Positions 4,695 through 25,193 of a stretch of 45,899 bases of DNA are shown piece after piece. A program made the translations under genes and the position numbers. The stretch is from a virus. Taxonomy: Duplodnaviria > Heunggongvirae > Uroviricota > Caudoviricetes. The stretch is from the IMG/VR virus record IMGVR_UViG_2711768067_000020, one strand, 5' to 3'. How positions within the stretch are numbered: position 1 is the first letter of the stretch; each line of letters begins with the position of its first letter. The notes beneath the pieces were generated by a model. That model was not told where the DNA came from and searched no databases. It saw nothing but the letters and a program-made list of their open reading frames with translations.

Positions 4695-5441
4695 ATGGAG
4701 ACTGTTTTTGACGCACTGAAAGCGATGGGAAAAGCCACGTCGGTAGAGCTGGCTGCGCGACTTGATATCAGTCGTGAAGAAGTGCTGAACGAGCTGTGGG
4801 AACTGAGAAAGGCTGGCTTCGTTGATAAAAGCGTATACACCTGGCGTGTGGCTTATAACAACGTTCAGCAGGAACAGCCAGCGCCGGCAGAACTGTCGGA
4901 AGAAACCACCACGGCAACAGTCGCTAAAATTTCGGAGTGCGATTTAACTGCGACGGTTGAACAACGCGGACCACAAACGGCTGATGAGCTGGCTACGTTG
5001 TTCGGTACAACATCACGCAAAGTGGCTTCAACGCTGGCAATGGCAATCAGCAAAGGTCGTCTGATTCGTGTAAACCAGAACGGTAAATTTCGTTACTGCA
5101 TGCCGGGCGATAAGTTACCAGCAGAGCCGAAATCCGTGCCGGTAACGGAAAATGATGGTAAAGCCTTTCCTCAGCCAGCAGGTGTTGCGTTACCAGTACA
5201 GGAAGCTGCAACACAGGAAGATATTAAAACAGAAACTGTGGCTGATATTGTGCAATCGTTGCCATCGTTTACTGAAACGCGAGCGGATGACCTGGTTTTA
5301 CCATCGCTGCATATGGCAAACCGCGAATTGCGTCGGGCGAAAAGTCATGTCCAGAAGTGGGAGCGAGTCTGCGCCGCGCTGCGGGAGCTGAACAAGCACC
5401 GAGATATGGTTGCCGGGATTTGTCGGAAGTCCGGGCAATGA
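4695..5441 (+). CDS. Phage protein of unknown function
   Basis: 248-aa ORF with GGAGG SD; N-terminal region winged-helix-like; function not assignable. Confidence 0.5.
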
Positions 5442-20449: not shown

Positions 20450-20639
20450 ACTACAGGCGCTACGTCAGGCGCGCCTTGATTTATTAACCGGTAAACGGGT
20501 GGTGTCTGTCCAGAAAGATGGTCGCAGAATTGAATATACGGCGGCTTCTCTGGATGAGCTTAACCGGGCGATCAATGATGCGGAGTCGGTACTGGGGACA
20601 ACCCGACGTCGCCGTCGTCCGCTGGGAGTGAGGTTATGA
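20433..20639 (+). CDS. W: Head-tail joining protein W
   Basis: 68 aa, aligns with lambda gpW (LLTGKRVVSVQKDGRRIEYTA). Confidence 0.9.
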   Translation: MVTVAELQALRQARLDLLTGKRVVSVQKDGRRIEYTAASLDELNRAINDAESVLGTTRRRRRPLGVRL

Positions 20640-22228
20640 AACGAACGCCTGTCCTGATTGATGTGAACGGCGTTCCGCTTCGTGAGAGTCTCAGCTACAA
20701 CGGGGGCGGCGCAGGATTTGGCGGGCAAATGGCGGAGTGGTTGCCACCGGCGCAGAGTGCCGATGCAGCCCTGCTGCCTGCGTTGCGTCTGGGGAATGCC
20801 CGGGCAGATGATCTGGTGCGCAATAACGGGATAGCGGCCAATGCGGTGGCCCTGCATAAGGATCATATTGTCGGGCATATGTTTCTGATCAGCTACCGTC
20901 CGAACTGGCGCTGGCTGGGGATGCGGGAGACTGCGGCAAAAAGTTTTGTCGATGAGGTGGAGGCGGCCTGGTCGGAATACGCCGAAGGGATGTCTGGCGA
21001 GATCGACGTGGAAGAGAAACGCACGTTTACGGAATTTATTCGTGAAGGTGTGGGCGTTCATGCGTTTAACGGCGAAATCTTTGTGCAGCCGGTCTGGGAT
21101 ACGGAGAGCACGCAACTGTTTCGTACGCGTTTTAAAGCCGTGAGTCCGAAACGGGTGGACACGCCAGGACACGGTATGGGGAACCGTTTTCTGCGGGCCG
21201 GTGTGGAGGTCGATCGATATGGTCGTGCCGTTGCGTACCATATCTGTGAGGATGATTTTCCGTTCTCTGGGAGTGGACGATGGGAACGGATCCCGCGTGA
21301 ACTTCCCACCGGGCGTCCGGCCATGCTGCATATTTTCGAGCCGGTGGAGGACGGGCAGACCCGTGGGGCCAATCAGTTTTACAGCGTAATGGAACGGCTG
21401 AAGATGCTCGATTCCCTGCAGGCAACACAGCTTCAGTCGGCCATAGTGAAGGCGATGTATGCAGCGACGATTGAAAGTGACCTTGATACCGAAAAGGCCT
21501 TTGAATATATCGCCGGTGCGCCGCAGGGGCAGAAGGATAATCCGCTTATTAATATTCTGGATAAGTTCTCCACCTGGTATGACACGAATAGCGTGACGCT
21601 GGGCGGTGTCAAAATTCCGCACCTTTTCCCCGGTGATGATCTGAAACTTCAGACCGCGCAGGATTCAGACAATGGATTTTCGGCGCTTGAACAGGCGCTG
21701 CTGCGGTATATCGCCGCCGGTCTTGGCGTTTCCTACGAACAGTTGTCCCGTGATTACTCGAAGGTCAGTTATTCAAGTGCCCGCGCATCCGCCAATGAGT
21801 CGTGGCGCTATTTTATGGGGCGGCGAAAATTTATTGCGTCCCGGCTGGCCACGCAGATGTTTTCCTGCTGGCTGGAAGAGGCACTTCTTCGGGGGATTAT
21901 TCGTCCGCCACGGGCACGTTTTGATTTTTATCAGGCGCGATCAGCCTGGTCACGGGCTGAGTGGATTGGAGCCGGAAGAATGGCCATTGACGGGCTCAAG
22001 GAGGTTCAGGAATCAGTGATGCGCATTGAGGCCGGACTGAGCACGTATGAGAAAGAGCTGGCGCTGATGGGCGAGGATTATCAGGACATTTTCCGCCAGC
22101 AGGTCAGGGAATCTGCAGAGCGGGAAAAAGCCGGACTCTCACGTCCGGTGTGGATAGCGCAGGCGTATCAGCAGCAGATAGCGGAGAGTCGCAGGCCGGA
22201 AGAGGAGACAACACCACGTGAGACGTAA
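20636..22228 (+). CDS. B: Portal protein (lambda B-like)
   Basis: 530 aa; position and length as lambda gpB. Confidence 0.9.
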   Translation: MKRTPVLIDVNGVPLRESLSYNGGGAGFGGQMAEWLPPAQSADAALLPALRLGNARADDLVRNNGIAANAVALHKDHIVGHMFLISYRPNWRWLGMRETAAKSFVDEVEAAWSEYAEGMSGEIDVEEKRTFTEFIREGVGVHAFNGEIFVQPVWDTESTQLFRTRFKAVSPKRVDTPGHGMGNRFLRAGVEVDRYGRAVAYHICEDDFPFSGSGRWERIPRELPTGRPAMLHIFEPVEDGQTRGANQFYSVMERLKMLDSLQATQLQSAIVKAMYAATIESDLDTEKAFEYIAGAPQGQKDNPLINILDKFSTWYDTNSVTLGGVKIPHLFPGDDLKLQTAQDSDNGFSALEQALLRYIAAGLGVSYEQLSRDYSKVSYSSARASANESWRYFMGRRKFIASRLATQMFSCWLEEALLRGIIRPPRARFDFYQARSAWSRAEWIGAGRMAIDGLKEVQESVMRIEAGLSTYEKELALMGEDYQDIFRQQVRESAEREKAGLSRPVWIAQAYQQQIAESRRPEEETTPRET

Positions 22229-23723
22229 TCTTTCACACATTATTGCCGCAGCATTCAATGAACCGCTGCTTCTGGAGCCCGCCTATGCGCGGGTTTTCTT
22301 TTGCGCGCTCGGGCGCGAGATGGGGGCAGCAAGTCTTTCGGTACCACAACAGCAGGTACAGCTTGATGCTCCCGGAATGCTGGCTGAAACGGACGAGTAC
22401 ATGGCCGGAGGTAAACGACCGGCCCGTGTTTACCGGGTGGTGAACGGTATTGCGGTACTGCCGGTGACCGGCACGCTGGTGCACCGGCTGGGGGGGATGC
22501 GGCCATTTTCCGGAATGACTGGCTATGACGGCATTGTCGCCTGTCTTCAGCAGGCAATGGCAGATAGCCAGGTGCGGGGCATACTGCTGGACATTGACAG
22601 TCCGGGCGGGCAGGCCGCCGGCGCGTTTGACTGCGCTGACATGATTTACCGCCTCCGTCAGCAGAAGCCGGTCTGGGCACTGTGCAATGACACGGCCTGT
22701 TCTGCAGCCATGCTGCTGGCGTCGGCCTGCTCCCGACGGCTGGTTACCCAGACATCCCGTATCGGCTCCATTGGCGTGATGATGAGCCATGTCAGCTATG
22801 CCGGTCATCTGGCGCAGGCCGGTGTGGATATCACGCTGATTTACTCAGGGGCGCACAAGGTGGATGGCAATCAGTTTGAAGCCTTACCGGCAGAGGTTCG
22901 CCAGGACATGCAGCAGCGCATTGATGCGGCGCGCCGGATGTTTGCCGAAAAAGTGGCGATGTTTACCGGTCTGTCTGTTGATGCCGTCACGGGAACAGAG
23001 GCCGCCGTTTTTGAAGGTCAGTCCGGCATTGAGGCCGGGCTGGCGGATGAATTAGTCAATGCGTCGGATGCCATCAGTGTGATGGCCACGGCGCTGAACA
23101 GTAATGTCAGAGGAGGCACTATGCCGCAATTAACTGCAACGGAAGCCGCCGCGCAGGAGAACCAGCGAGTGATGGGGATCCTGACATGCCAGGAAGCGAA
23201 AGGACGTGAACAGCTTGCCACGATGCTGGCAGGACAACAGGGCATGAGCGTTGCACAGGCCCGGGCGATTCTGGCCGCGGCGGCACCGCAGCAGCCGGTG
23301 GCATCCACGCAGAGTGAAGCCGATCGCATTATGGCGTGTGAAGAAGCGAACGGTCGTGAACAACTGGCGGCAACGCTGGCGGCGATGCCGGAGATGACGG
23401 TGGAAAAAGCCCGCCCGATCCTGGCTGCTTCACCGCAGGCGGATGCCGGACCCTCACTCCGTGATCAGATCATGGCACTGGATGAGGCAAAAGGGGCTGA
23501 GGCGCAGGCTGAACAACTGGCTGCCTGCCCGGGAATGACTGTGGAGAGCGCCCGGGCTGTGCTGGCTGCGGGATCAGGTAAGGCAGAACCGGTCTCTGCA
23601 TCCACAACCGCCCTGTTTGAACGCATCATGGCGAACCATTCACCGGCAGCGGTACAGGGTGGCGTGCCACAGACGTCAGCAGACGGTGATGCGGACGTGA
23701 AAATGCTCATGGCCATGCCATGA
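22218..23723 (+). CDS. C: Head maturation protease C with in-frame Nu3-like scaffold region carrying a triplicated motif
   Basis: 501 aa, GTG start; aligns with lambda gpC (AAFNEPLLLEPAYARVFFCAL, GIAVLPVTGTL, SGMTGYDGI); C-terminal third is Nu3-like. Confidence 0.9.
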   Translation: MRRNLSHIIAAAFNEPLLLEPAYARVFFCALGREMGAASLSVPQQQVQLDAPGMLAETDEYMAGGKRPARVYRVVNGIAVLPVTGTLVHRLGGMRPFSGMTGYDGIVACLQQAMADSQVRGILLDIDSPGGQAAGAFDCADMIYRLRQQKPVWALCNDTACSAAMLLASACSRRLVTQTSRIGSIGVMMSHVSYAGHLAQAGVDITLIYSGAHKVDGNQFEALPAEVRQDMQQRIDAARRMFAEKVAMFTGLSVDAVTGTEAAVFEGQSGIEAGLADELVNASDAISVMATALNSNVRGGTMPQLTATEAAAQENQRVMGILTCQEAKGREQLATMLAGQQGMSVAQARAILAAAAPQQPVASTQSEADRIMACEEANGREQLAATLAAMPEMTVEKARPILAASPQADAGPSLRDQIMALDEAKGAEAQAEQLAACPGMTVESARAVLAAGSGKAEPVSASTTALFERIMANHSPAAVQGGVPQTSADGDADVKMLMAMP

Positions 23724-23759
23724 AGTCAGTGCTGATCATCAACAGGAGGTTTTTACAAT

Positions 23760-24107
23760 ATGGTAACGAAAACCATCACTGAACAGCGTGCGGAAGTACG
23801 TATTTTTGCCGGTAATGATCCGGCTCATACCGCCACAGGCAGCAGCGGGATTTCCTCGGCAACACCGGCACTGACGCCCCTGATGCTGGATGAAGCCAGC
23901 GGGAAACTGGTGGTCTGGGACGGACAGAAAGCCGGTAGTGCAGTTGGCATACTGGTACTGCCGCTTGAAGGCACAGAGACGGTACTGACCTATTACAAGT
24001 CGGGGACCTTTGCGACGGAGGCAATCCGCTGGCCTGAAAGTGTGGATGAACACAAAAAGGCAAATGCCTTTGCCGGCAGTGCCCTGAGTCACGCGGCGCT
24101 GCCGTAA
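23760..24107 (+). CDS. D: Head decoration protein D
   Basis: 115 aa; DPAHTATG, TPLMLDEASGKLVVWDG, YYKSGTF as in lambda gpD. Confidence 0.9.
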   Translation: MVTKTITEQRAEVRIFAGNDPAHTATGSSGISSATPALTPLMLDEASGKLVVWDGQKAGSAVGILVLPLEGTETVLTYYKSGTFATEAIRWPESVDEHKKANAFAGSALSHAALP

Positions 24108-24164
24108 CACGTTATCAGGCCACCGCGGTGGCCTGACTGATTTCTGAATGAAAGGAACTGATTT

Positions 24165-25193
24165 ATGGGATTGTTTACGACCCGCCAGTTACTCGGTTAT
24201 ACCGAACAAAAAGTGAAATTTCGTGCGCTGTTTCTGGAGCTGTTTTTCCGCCGTACGGTGAATTTCCATACCGAAGAGGTGATGCTGGACAAAATTACCG
24301 GAAAAACGCTGGTGGCGGCCTATGTCTCCCCGGTTGTTGAAGGAAAAGTGCTGCGTCATCGTGGTGGTGAAACCCGCGTGTTACGTCCGGGCTACGTCAA
24401 GCCGAAACACGAATTTAATTACCAGCAGGCGGTTGAGCGCCTTCCTGGTGAAGATCCGGCTCAACTGAACGATCCGGCTTACCGCCGTCTGCGTATCATT
24501 ACCGATAACCTCAAACAGGAAGAGCACGCGATTGTCCAGGTGGAAGAAATACAGGCGGTAAATGCTGTGTTGTATGGCAAATATACGATGGAAGGAGACC
24601 AGTTCGAGAAAATTGAGGTCGATTTTGGCAGGTCGACGAAGAATAACATCACTCAGGGTAGTGGTAAGGAGTGGTCAAAACAGGATCGTGACACGTTCGA
24701 TCCTACACATGATCTTGACCTCTACTGCGACCAGGCCAGCGGTCTTGTGAATATTGCCATTATGGACGGTACCGTCTGGCGTCTTCTGAATGGTTTTAAG
24801 CTGTTCCGCGAAAAACTGGATACCCGTCGCGGTTCAAATTCTCAACTCGAAACGGCAGTGAAAGATCTGGGCGCAGTGGTGTCCTTCAAGGGGTATTACG
24901 GCGATCTGGCCATTGTGGTGGCGAAAACGTCTTATATAGCAGAAGACGGTATCGAAAAACGTTATCTGCCGGAGGGCATGCTGGTTCTGGGGAATACTGC
25001 TGCAGATGGGATCCGTTGTTACGGTGCCATTCAGGATGCGCAGGCGTTGTCCGAAGGTGTGGTGGCCTCTTCCCGTTATCCGAAACACTGGCTGACGGTG
25101 GGGGATCCCGCCCGTGAATTTACCATGACGCAGTCCGCGCCGCTGATGGTGTTGCCGGACCCGGATGAGTTTGTGGTGGTACAGGTGAAATAA
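24165..25193 (+). CDS. E: Major capsid protein E
   Basis: 342 aa, collinear with lambda gpE (GYVKPKHEFN, DTRRGSNSQLETAVKDLG, GDPAREFTMTQSAPLMVLPDPDEFVVVQVK). Confidence 0.95.
   Translation: MGLFTTRQLLGYTEQKVKFRALFLELFFRRTVNFHTEEVMLDKITGKTLVAAYVSPVVEGKVLRHRGGETRVLRPGYVKPKHEFNYQQAVERLPGEDPAQLNDPAYRRLRIITDNLKQEEHAIVQVEEIQAVNAVLYGKYTMEGDQFEKIEVDFGRSTKNNITQGSGKEWSKQDRDTFDPTHDLDLYCDQASGLVNIAIMDGTVWRLLNGFKLFREKLDTRRGSNSQLETAVKDLGAVVSFKGYYGDLAIVVAKTSYIAEDGIEKRYLPEGMLVLGNTAADGIRCYGAIQDAQALSEGVVASSRYPKHWLTVGDPAREFTMTQSAPLMVLPDPDEFVVVQVK

Follow-up and report, generated by a model that had tools for sequence, protein, structure and literature searches.

Three copies, one module: the tandem scaffold repeats of a phage 21-type prohead protease gene and their possible role in head assembly

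Why should a phage scaffold carry three times a segment that phage lambda carries only once, and do the additional copies have a role of their own? This question is raised by the tailed-phage record IMGVR_UViG_2711768067_000020 from IMG/VR (Caudoviricetes; 45,899 nt, the whole stretch being called the window hereafter), in which an open reading frame (ORF) of 501 amino acids (aa), located at 22218..23723 on the plus strand, encodes a prohead protease/scaffold protein that corresponds to gene 5 of phage 21 and to C of lambda. The gene starts with GTG and overlaps the end of the portal gene. An analysis of the letters without any database search (the original prediction) had proposed three diverged tandem copies of a lambda Nu3 motif in this gene, at positions 23160-23590, and had considered them to be an old duplication which lengthens the scaffold domain. 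We found that the three copies are real, in frame and long diverged.

The three peptides named in that prediction are present exactly and in frame at aa 321-357, 371-406 and 418-452, which correspond to nt 23178-23288, 23328-23435 and 23469-23573 and all lie within the claimed interval. Self-alignment of the protein yielded local BLOSUM62 scores of 94 for the first and second copies (R1/R2), 76 for R1/R3 and 97 for R2/R3, far above those of composition-matched shuffles (mean ~25, standard deviation ~5; z = 10-15; observed score reached in 0/2000), indicating that the segments are related. At the DNA level, the 35-codon cores of the repeats are only 56-65% identical between copies, and just 8 of the 18-21 codons for identical residues (less than half) are themselves the same. 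Tandem Repeats Finder reported no repeat in the region 22900-23800 because the copies are too diverged at the DNA level. Thus, the low DNA identity and this blank result, together with the positional orthology of the repeats across lineages described below, show that the duplication is old and not an assembly artefact. The contrary idea, that the repeat is a product of assembly or sequencing, is refuted by the divergence of the copies and by the recurrence of the gene in 19 phage records and 1,864 complete Escherichia coli genomes.

The triplication itself is already known. In the GenBank entry for the phage 21 head operon (M81255.1), gene 6 carries three repeat regions designated 'Tri1 box', 'Tri box' and 'Tri3 box', which correspond to positions 23188-23291, 23328-23438 and 23469-23582 of the window. 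Because these annotations map onto the same segments, the three copies are the Tri boxes that have stood in the phage 21 record for decades, and their detection here is a rediscovery. Across all 1506 nt, the DNA of the window gene is 98.5% identical to that of gene 5 in phage 21 (M81255.1 and OL657228.1). The two share the 501-aa length, the nested gene 6 start with its ribosome-binding site, the three repeat segments and the neighboring genes, namely portal, shp (D-like) and gene 7 (E-like); with only ~1.5% point differences, they are the same thing. In the complete phage 21 genome of 2022 (OL657228.1), the pair is named 'capsid protease/scaffolding protein' and 'scaffolding protein'. Judged by its sequence, the window gene is a member of the phage 21 gp5/gp6 and lambda C/Nu3 family, i.e., S49 prohead proteases with a nested scaffold. 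Literature searches on Tri boxes or Nu3 domain mapping found nothing, and no experiment on the module turned up in the literature searched. The original paper on the phage 21 head genes is Smith and Feiss, Gene 1993. What is new here is the census of copy number from one to four, the positional orthology of the copies, the purifying selection on each of them, the conservation of the internal start site and the predicted structure.

Each copy represents a module of ~40 aa with the consensus R-x-x-G-I-L-x-x-x-E-A-K-G-R-E-x-L-A-x-x-L-A-x-x-P-G-M-T-V-E-x-A-x-x-I-L-A-A-A-P. Using a hidden Markov model (HMM) of this module, all three units were detected on the plus strand with highly significant independent E-values (iE): module 1 (Tri1 box), RVMGILTCQEAKGREQLATMLAGQQGMSVAQARAILAAAA, at aa 317-356 (23166..23285; iE 3.8e-21); module 2 (Tri box 2), ADRIMACEEANGREQLAATLAAMPEMTVEKARPILAASP, at aa 368-406 (23319..23435; iE 5.4e-21); and module 3 (Tri3 box), RDQIMALDEAKGAEAQAEQLAACPGMTVESARAVLAAGS, at aa 415-453 (23460..23576; iE 4.2e-19). 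They are separated by linker 1 (PQQPVASTQSE, aa 357-367, 23286..23318) and linker 2 (QADAGPSL, aa 407-414, 23436..23459), both of which fall in variable alignment columns; linker 1 varies in sequence and length among homologues and has 30-71% aa identity to its counterparts in three-copy proteins. Lambda C contains a single module, RIMGILNCEEAHGREEQARVLAETPGMTVKTARRILAAAP, just as had been stated in the original prediction. As the comparison of homologue sequences has shown, the scaffold part of lambda-type S49 prohead protease/scaffold proteins has this module as its conserved core, and in the lambda Nu3 scaffold the module is the sole strongly conserved element. Module 3 is followed by a C-terminal tail (aa 454-501, 23577..23720, ending in ...LMAMP) that is homologous to the lambda tail ALDRLM...LLNTPV. 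Its motif ALFERIM (aa 465-471, nt 23610-23630) resembles the first helix of the module and is kept in all homologues (ALDRLM in lambda, AFDQFM in Salmonella); in generalized form, every homologue retains 'aLfdrfM' and an ending 'LLxxP' C-terminal to the last module. A DNA repeat family (D1) was also observed at 23321, 23462 and 23618, with spacings of 141 and 156 nt; the corresponding peptide motifs are DRIMA, DQIMA and ERIMA. No significant alignment was obtained between the tail and the three units, although the tail opens with the same short helix start, 'xRIMA'. The ALFERIM segment may be what is left of an additional, truncated module, or it may be a binding element in its own right.

Comparison with C/Nu3 proteins of related phages revealed that the triplication is present in several lineages and that repeats at the same position are orthologous. 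When each window copy was compared with its positional counterpart in the homologues from Salmonella/Gifsy-like, Trabulsiella and Providencia lineages, the identities were 71-83% for R1, 57-80% for R2 and 54-66% for R3, versus 51-57%, 57-60% and 51-60%, respectively, between each copy and its own paralogues. The repeats are thus closer to their positional counterparts than to their neighbors, implying that the triplication predates the split of these lineages, whose protease domains are 68-80% identical and whose synonymous sites are near saturation (synonymous divergence, dS, >1). For example, the lambda gpC homologue STM2605 of Gifsy-1 (L166; 498 aa) has modules at aa 317-356, 364-402 and 410-448, each orthologous to the same-numbered module of the window, but its linkers are shorter and its tail has a different end (...LLMSIPGTSAT); Gifsy-1 and related Salmonella prophage proteases show ~70% aa identity in the protease domain. 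The ratio of nonsynonymous to synonymous divergence (dN/dS), approximate because of synonymous saturation, was 0.08-0.10 for R1, 0.06-0.24 for R2 and 0.28-0.37 for R3, compared with 0.11-0.19 for the protease domain, 0.3-0.7 for the linkers (0.3-0.66 for linker 2) and 0.3-0.44 for the tail. These substitution patterns indicate that each module is under purifying selection and, therefore, that all three copies have been kept by selection. The triplication probably arose once, before the lineages of phage 21, Gifsy-1, Trabulsiella and Providencia separated, and unequal recombination probably continues to yield variants with two and four copies.

To establish how copy number is distributed, we scanned with the module HMM the C homologues of 163 loci taken from IMG/VR, one-genome-per-species contigs and phage records; genomic loci were used because a first homology search with gp6 gave mostly truncated fragments. 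All complete genes in these loci contain the module, and the ORFs without it either run off the contig or end at 344 aa. One copy was found in 61 unique complete proteins (lambda, Enterobacter, Kluyvera, Erwinia, Vibrio, Pseudomonas-like, Marinobacter, Marinomonas and Zooshikella), two copies in 2 (L066 and Buttiauxella, L089), and three copies in 74 (phage-21-like elements of E. coli, Shigella and E. albertii, Salmonella Gifsy-like elements including Gifsy-1 itself, Trabulsiella and Providencia). The two-copy gene L066:3001-4353 (IMGVR_UViG_2531839474_000007) is an exact fusion of the N-terminal half of R1 to the C-terminal half of R2 at REQLA, in a locus whose portal and decoration genes are 100% and whose capsid gene is 99.7% identical to those of the window; other deletions in R2 were observed in P0018, P0021, P0009, P0011 and P0016. 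A profile of the three window copies searched against 1.84 billion cluster representatives matched 451 proteins at E <= 1e-3, usually 80-100 aa before the C-terminus of proteins of 400-550 aa, and Peptidase_S49 was present in 58 of the 63 long matches. A partial S49 peptidase of E. coli (P0031, 48 member sequences) has four copies, QIMALPEAKGREQLAQ(A/M)LA(E/G)QPGMTV(E/D/A)QAK..., whose near identity indicates a recent expansion; P0097, P0099 and P0100 are likewise listed for the four-copy variant. No close match to P0031 was detected in 50,697 phage records, the best being 61% identical. Three distant stand-alone proteins (P0121, P0203 and P0230) have two copies. One of them, P0203 (L164:5001-5672; GCA_001908235.1, LGHK01000125.1), is a 223-aa protein that carries its two modules without a protease domain. 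Its gene belongs to a small cluster that also comprises an integrase gene, short genes, a gene for a 298-aa protein and a tape-measure gene, with no portal or terminase gene in between, and this locus may be a satellite-like or degraded element using a scaffold-like protein.

How far the copies lengthen the scaffold depends on where lambda Nu3 starts. A Shine-Dalgarno (SD) sequence, GAGGAGG (23110..23116, plus strand; also annotated as ribosome-binding site in M81255.1 and OL657228.1), precedes an in-frame ATG at 23121, from which the nested scaffolding gene (phage 21 gene 6; lambda Nu3 equivalent; coding sequences AAA32344.1 and UMO75421.1) runs to 23723 on the same strand. Its predicted product of 200 aa has a calculated mass of 20.5 kDa and an isoelectric point (pI) of 4.6, and matches two PHROGs families: phrog_53, annotated as head maturation protease, and, in three stretches, phrog_8399, annotated as head scaffolding protein. 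Because of this in-frame internal start, the module array should be made twice, once on the protease protein and once as nearly the whole of the 200-aa scaffolding protein. The boundary between protease and scaffold bears an SD-like element and an in-frame ATG in 132 of the 137 unique complete homologues. Lambda has such a site, caggagggcgaATG, at the aligned position (Met309 of C, nt 5342), giving a protein of 131 aa and 13.4 kDa. In RefSeq, however, lambda nu3 (NC_001416 5132..5737; L003:833-1438) is a 201-aa gene starting at an upstream ATG without SD sequence, and PHROGs contains both a 131-position and a 201-position 'head scaffolding protein' family. Given that there is no SD sequence at 5132 and that the SD-ATG at 5342 aligns with the conserved gene 6 start, the RefSeq start of nu3 is probably wrong.

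Measured from the conserved start, the scaffold has 200 aa here, 150 aa in two-copy and ~131-137 aa in one-copy proteins, and the distance from the start to the first module is 15 aa in three-copy but 36-57 aa in one-copy proteins. Lambda C/Nu3 shares with the window the gene order, the S49 domain, the module, the conserved tail and the boundary SD-ATG, and differs from it in having one module instead of three, a linker of 36 aa, missing from phage 21, ahead of the module, a shorter C (439 versus 501 aa, a difference of 62 aa) and a Nu3 of 131 aa from the conserved start (201 aa in RefSeq) versus 200 aa. The proposed lengthening of the scaffold domain therefore stands in that the domain is longer (200 versus 131 aa), but the gain is less than two modules' worth and depends on which Nu3 start is used; it falls below two modules because the 36-aa linker of lambda is absent here.

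These data also bear on the possibility that the two extra copies are a neutral spacer, a tolerated duplication without a role of its own. Such a reading would fit the unchanged length of the capsid protein (and presumably capsid size), the natural two-copy deletion variants (L066, P0018 and P0021) and the relaxation of R3 relative to R1. On the other hand, all three copies persist in their places in lineages whose synonymous sites have reached saturation, the dN/dS of each copy is well below 1 and below that of the linkers, and the three-copy form dominates, with 1,864 E. coli genomes. Furthermore, the gain of modules came with the loss of the 36-aa linker, suggesting length compensation rather than drift. 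We thus consider a neutral spacer improbable.

We then asked what kind of structure the module may adopt. An AlphaFold2 (AF2) model of the 200-aa gp6, built from a 25-sequence alignment, had a mean predicted local distance difference test score (pLDDT) of 67 and a predicted template modeling score (pTM) of 0.27. In this model, each module consists of a short helix, a break at an invariant Gly, a helix, a PGMT loop and a further helix, with pLDDT values of 73-81 (77-81 for module 1). The linkers (pLDDT <50 at gp6 residues 58-62, in linker 1) and the tail are of low confidence, except for a tail helix over ALFERIMANHS (gp6 residues 161-172), and the pTM implies that the modules have no fixed mutual arrangement. 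A single module modeled alone forms a helix-loop-helix with a pLDDT of 78. It is thus predicted from these models that the module folds independently of its neighbors into a small helical unit. A Foldseek search of the PDB with the full gp6 model returned no match at E <= 0.001, as expected for beads on a string with a pTM of 0.27, and no match to the module was found among solved structures or Pfam families. A profile of 38 diverse modules compared with PDB sequences hit only designed toroid repeats, in which sub-threshold stretches had been summed, and these hits were discarded as artefacts.

One reading of this fold is that of a helix-hairpin-helix (HhH) DNA-binding motif contacting DNA during packaging, given the HhH-like appearance of the 'LAxxPGMTVExAxxIL' pattern and a weak match of R3 (aa 427-450) to the Pfam HHH family (PF00633; E 0.03-0.1). 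However, the score of 13.0-14.8 bits is far under the Pfam cut-off of 24, R1 and R2 have no HHH match, the protein is acidic (pI 4.6), and scaffolds leave the shell before DNA enters. With a sub-threshold score and an acidic protein, DNA binding by the module was rejected as extremely improbable.

We propose instead that the module is probably a handle by which both protease and scaffold are held at the inside of the major capsid protein shell as it grows and/or are tied to each other. Each module would fold alone, the units being joined by flexible, fast-evolving linkers. A single copy, which would be the ancestral state as in lambda, might act as a monovalent handle that needs weak dimerization, whereas three copies would make a trivalent scaffold of higher avidity that is able to bridge neighboring capsid subunits; once the shell is complete, the array would be broken down by the S49 protease to make way for the DNA. 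Taking the identity with the Tri boxes and this attachment explanation together, we hold the whole to be slightly favored. Binding to capsid protein is the reading of the module that we prefer, because Nu3-B, C-Nu3 and Nu3-Nu3 interactions are listed for lambda together with a two-hybrid Nu3-E interaction (PMC3224144), and because helical or helix-turn-helix units of the P22, phi29, SPP1 and 80alpha scaffolds are coat-binding elements (PMC11565965). It is quite conceivable, though somewhat less likely than not, that the module binds capsid protein and does so multivalently in the three-copy lineage. The likeness to those systems is a functional analogy: in P22 gp8, as at the coat-binding ends of phi29, SPP1 and 80alpha scaffolds, a small helical hairpin sits in a largely disordered, acidic scaffold (PMC11565965), but no sequence match or significant fold match was found between P22-type coat-binding domains and the window module. 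The window scaffold also differs in that the family carries the module in one to four tandem copies and in being degraded by a linked protease instead of recycled.

Several observations weigh against capsid binding by a multivalent array. The modules are not at the extreme C-terminus, unlike the coat-binding helix-turn-helix of P22; the last one ends 48 aa and the first one 145 aa before it. It is the conserved tail (ALFERIM...LMAMP) that could be the real capsid-targeting element. R3 is the least constrained of the three copies and has KGAE in place of the GRE motif, with loss of an otherwise near-invariant Arg. The two AF2 models differ on the break of the first helix at the invariant Gly, and in M81255.1 each Tri box is noted as 'function unknown; putative'. 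In addition, the major capsid protein has 341-342 aa in one-, two- and three-copy lineages alike, and the phage 21 genome is smaller than that of lambda (42.9 versus 48.5 kb). Since neither capsid-protein length nor genome size follows copy number in this way, no capsid phenotype tracks valency and the triplication is not a capsid-size device.

The main rival to capsid binding is self-association, in which the modules would mediate scaffold-scaffold and scaffold-protease contacts and build an internal core, the capsid being contacted by the conserved tail. In its favor, other prohead proteases use their C-terminal ends for encapsidation (e.g., HK97 gp4), and the 'aLfdrfM' motif and 'LLxxP' end of the tail occur in all homologues. 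C and Nu3 have only the module region in common, and both Nu3-Nu3 and C-Nu3 interactions have been reported in lambda (PMC3224144). By contrast, the three modules of one chain show no packing against each other in the AF2 model (pTM 0.27), and the tail has diverged far more quickly than the modules have (29-36% versus 55-84% aa identity between lineages). Self-association is, in our judgment, rather unlikely, if still a serious competitor. A different partner might be the portal protein (gp4, lambda B equivalent), in which case the modules would nucleate assembly and promote portal incorporation, but we assign little probability to this. Scaffolding proteins are far more numerous than a 12-mer portal could bind, which argues against such a role. 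Lambda Nu3 and E alone also form portal-less shells (PMC9295703), although lambda procapsids require Nu3 to take up B, and contacts of C with B have been described (PMC3224144, Table 2).

Returning to capsid binding, we put forward only tentatively, and with less confidence than the multivalent binding itself, a more general proposal that the Tri module is a universal capsid-binding (or scaffold-coupling) unit of the family whose copy number is an evolvable valency dial. If this were true, copy number would tune the avidity between scaffold and shell, and the series of lambda (one copy), L066 and Buttiauxella (two), phage 21 and Gifsy-1 (three) and P0031 (four) would be a ready-made test of scaffold valency against the nucleation and fidelity of procapsids. 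With the census, the way in which a degradable scaffold holds on to the capsid in the lambda family becomes accessible to concrete tests.

The N-terminal part of the gene and its surroundings support its placement as a C protease/scaffold gene, as had been claimed. A Peptidase_S49 (SppA-like serine protease) domain (PF01343) was identified at aa 146-293 (22653..23096, plus strand) with an E-value of 5.9e-35 and 120.9 bits (cut-off 24.9), and the gene lies between a portal ORF (20636-22228) and genes for a D-like protein (23760-24107, 115 aa) and an E-like major capsid protein (24165-25193, 342 aa). This order of portal, protease/scaffold, decoration and capsid genes is common to phage 21, lambda, Gifsy-1 and a prophage of E. 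coli O145. In a sequence search of the PDB, all matches were to SppA (3rst and 4kwb, E 2e-16) and covered aa 77-290. Ser162 of the window protein lines up with the serine in the 'AASGG' motif of SppA, and the same residue is found in lambda C, which is 59% identical in amino acids to the window protein; we take Ser162 (Ser166 in lambda) to be the nucleophile. The module HMM additionally produced a marginal match (E 0.011) within the S49 domain of Gifsy-1 STM2605, at aa 236-261, over a helix-loop-helix, DEARKMFAEKVARYTGLSVDAVMATE, that corresponds to aa ~236-261 (nt ~22923-23000) of the window. This hints that the scaffold module may have originated as a duplicate of the protease domain's last helical hairpin. 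Rfam gave no match in the region 22000-24300, the base composition was unremarkable, and no support was found for opposite-strand ORFs. We also rejected the two CII sites (ttgynnnnnnttgy) that OL657228.1 annotates in gene 6 (window 23126-23139 and 23360-23373, minus strand) as chance occurrences; the annotations are uninformative because the pattern occurs 6 times in the window versus 10 ± 3 expected by chance.

Eight contigs (L095, L096, L097, L099, L100, L101, L102 and L121) encode a C gene with 0 mismatches to phage lambda, in assemblies labeled Chromatium weissei, Kitasatospora papulosa, Shewanella canadensis, Pseudomonas spp., Oceanobacillus profundus, Leeuwenhoekiella nanhaiensis and a Chromatiales metagenome-assembled genome. 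Three of the lambda-C contigs are ~48.4-48.5 kb long, two of them being labeled with a coverage of 1-10x. Lambda DNA almost certainly contaminates these assemblies.

Three-copy gene 6 DNA was detected at a coverage of at least 80% in 1,864 of 5,426 complete E. coli genomes (~1/3), at up to five places per genome and 2,922 places in total. The triplicated gene is thus among the commonest prophage genes of E. coli, which leaves it little weight as a discovery. Gene 6 of the window is 100% identical to the copy in a lambdoid prophage of E. coli O145 RM9872 (NZ_CP028379.1). There, the Prokaryotic Genome Annotation Pipeline (PGAP) calls the gene (L165:19098-20603) only an 'S49 family peptidase', without the nested scaffolding gene, which is missing from the PGAP annotation of E. 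coli genomes. Besides tccP2 and sodC, that prophage has a remnant of espV, three tRNA genes and, within its lysis region, an inserted IS3 element.

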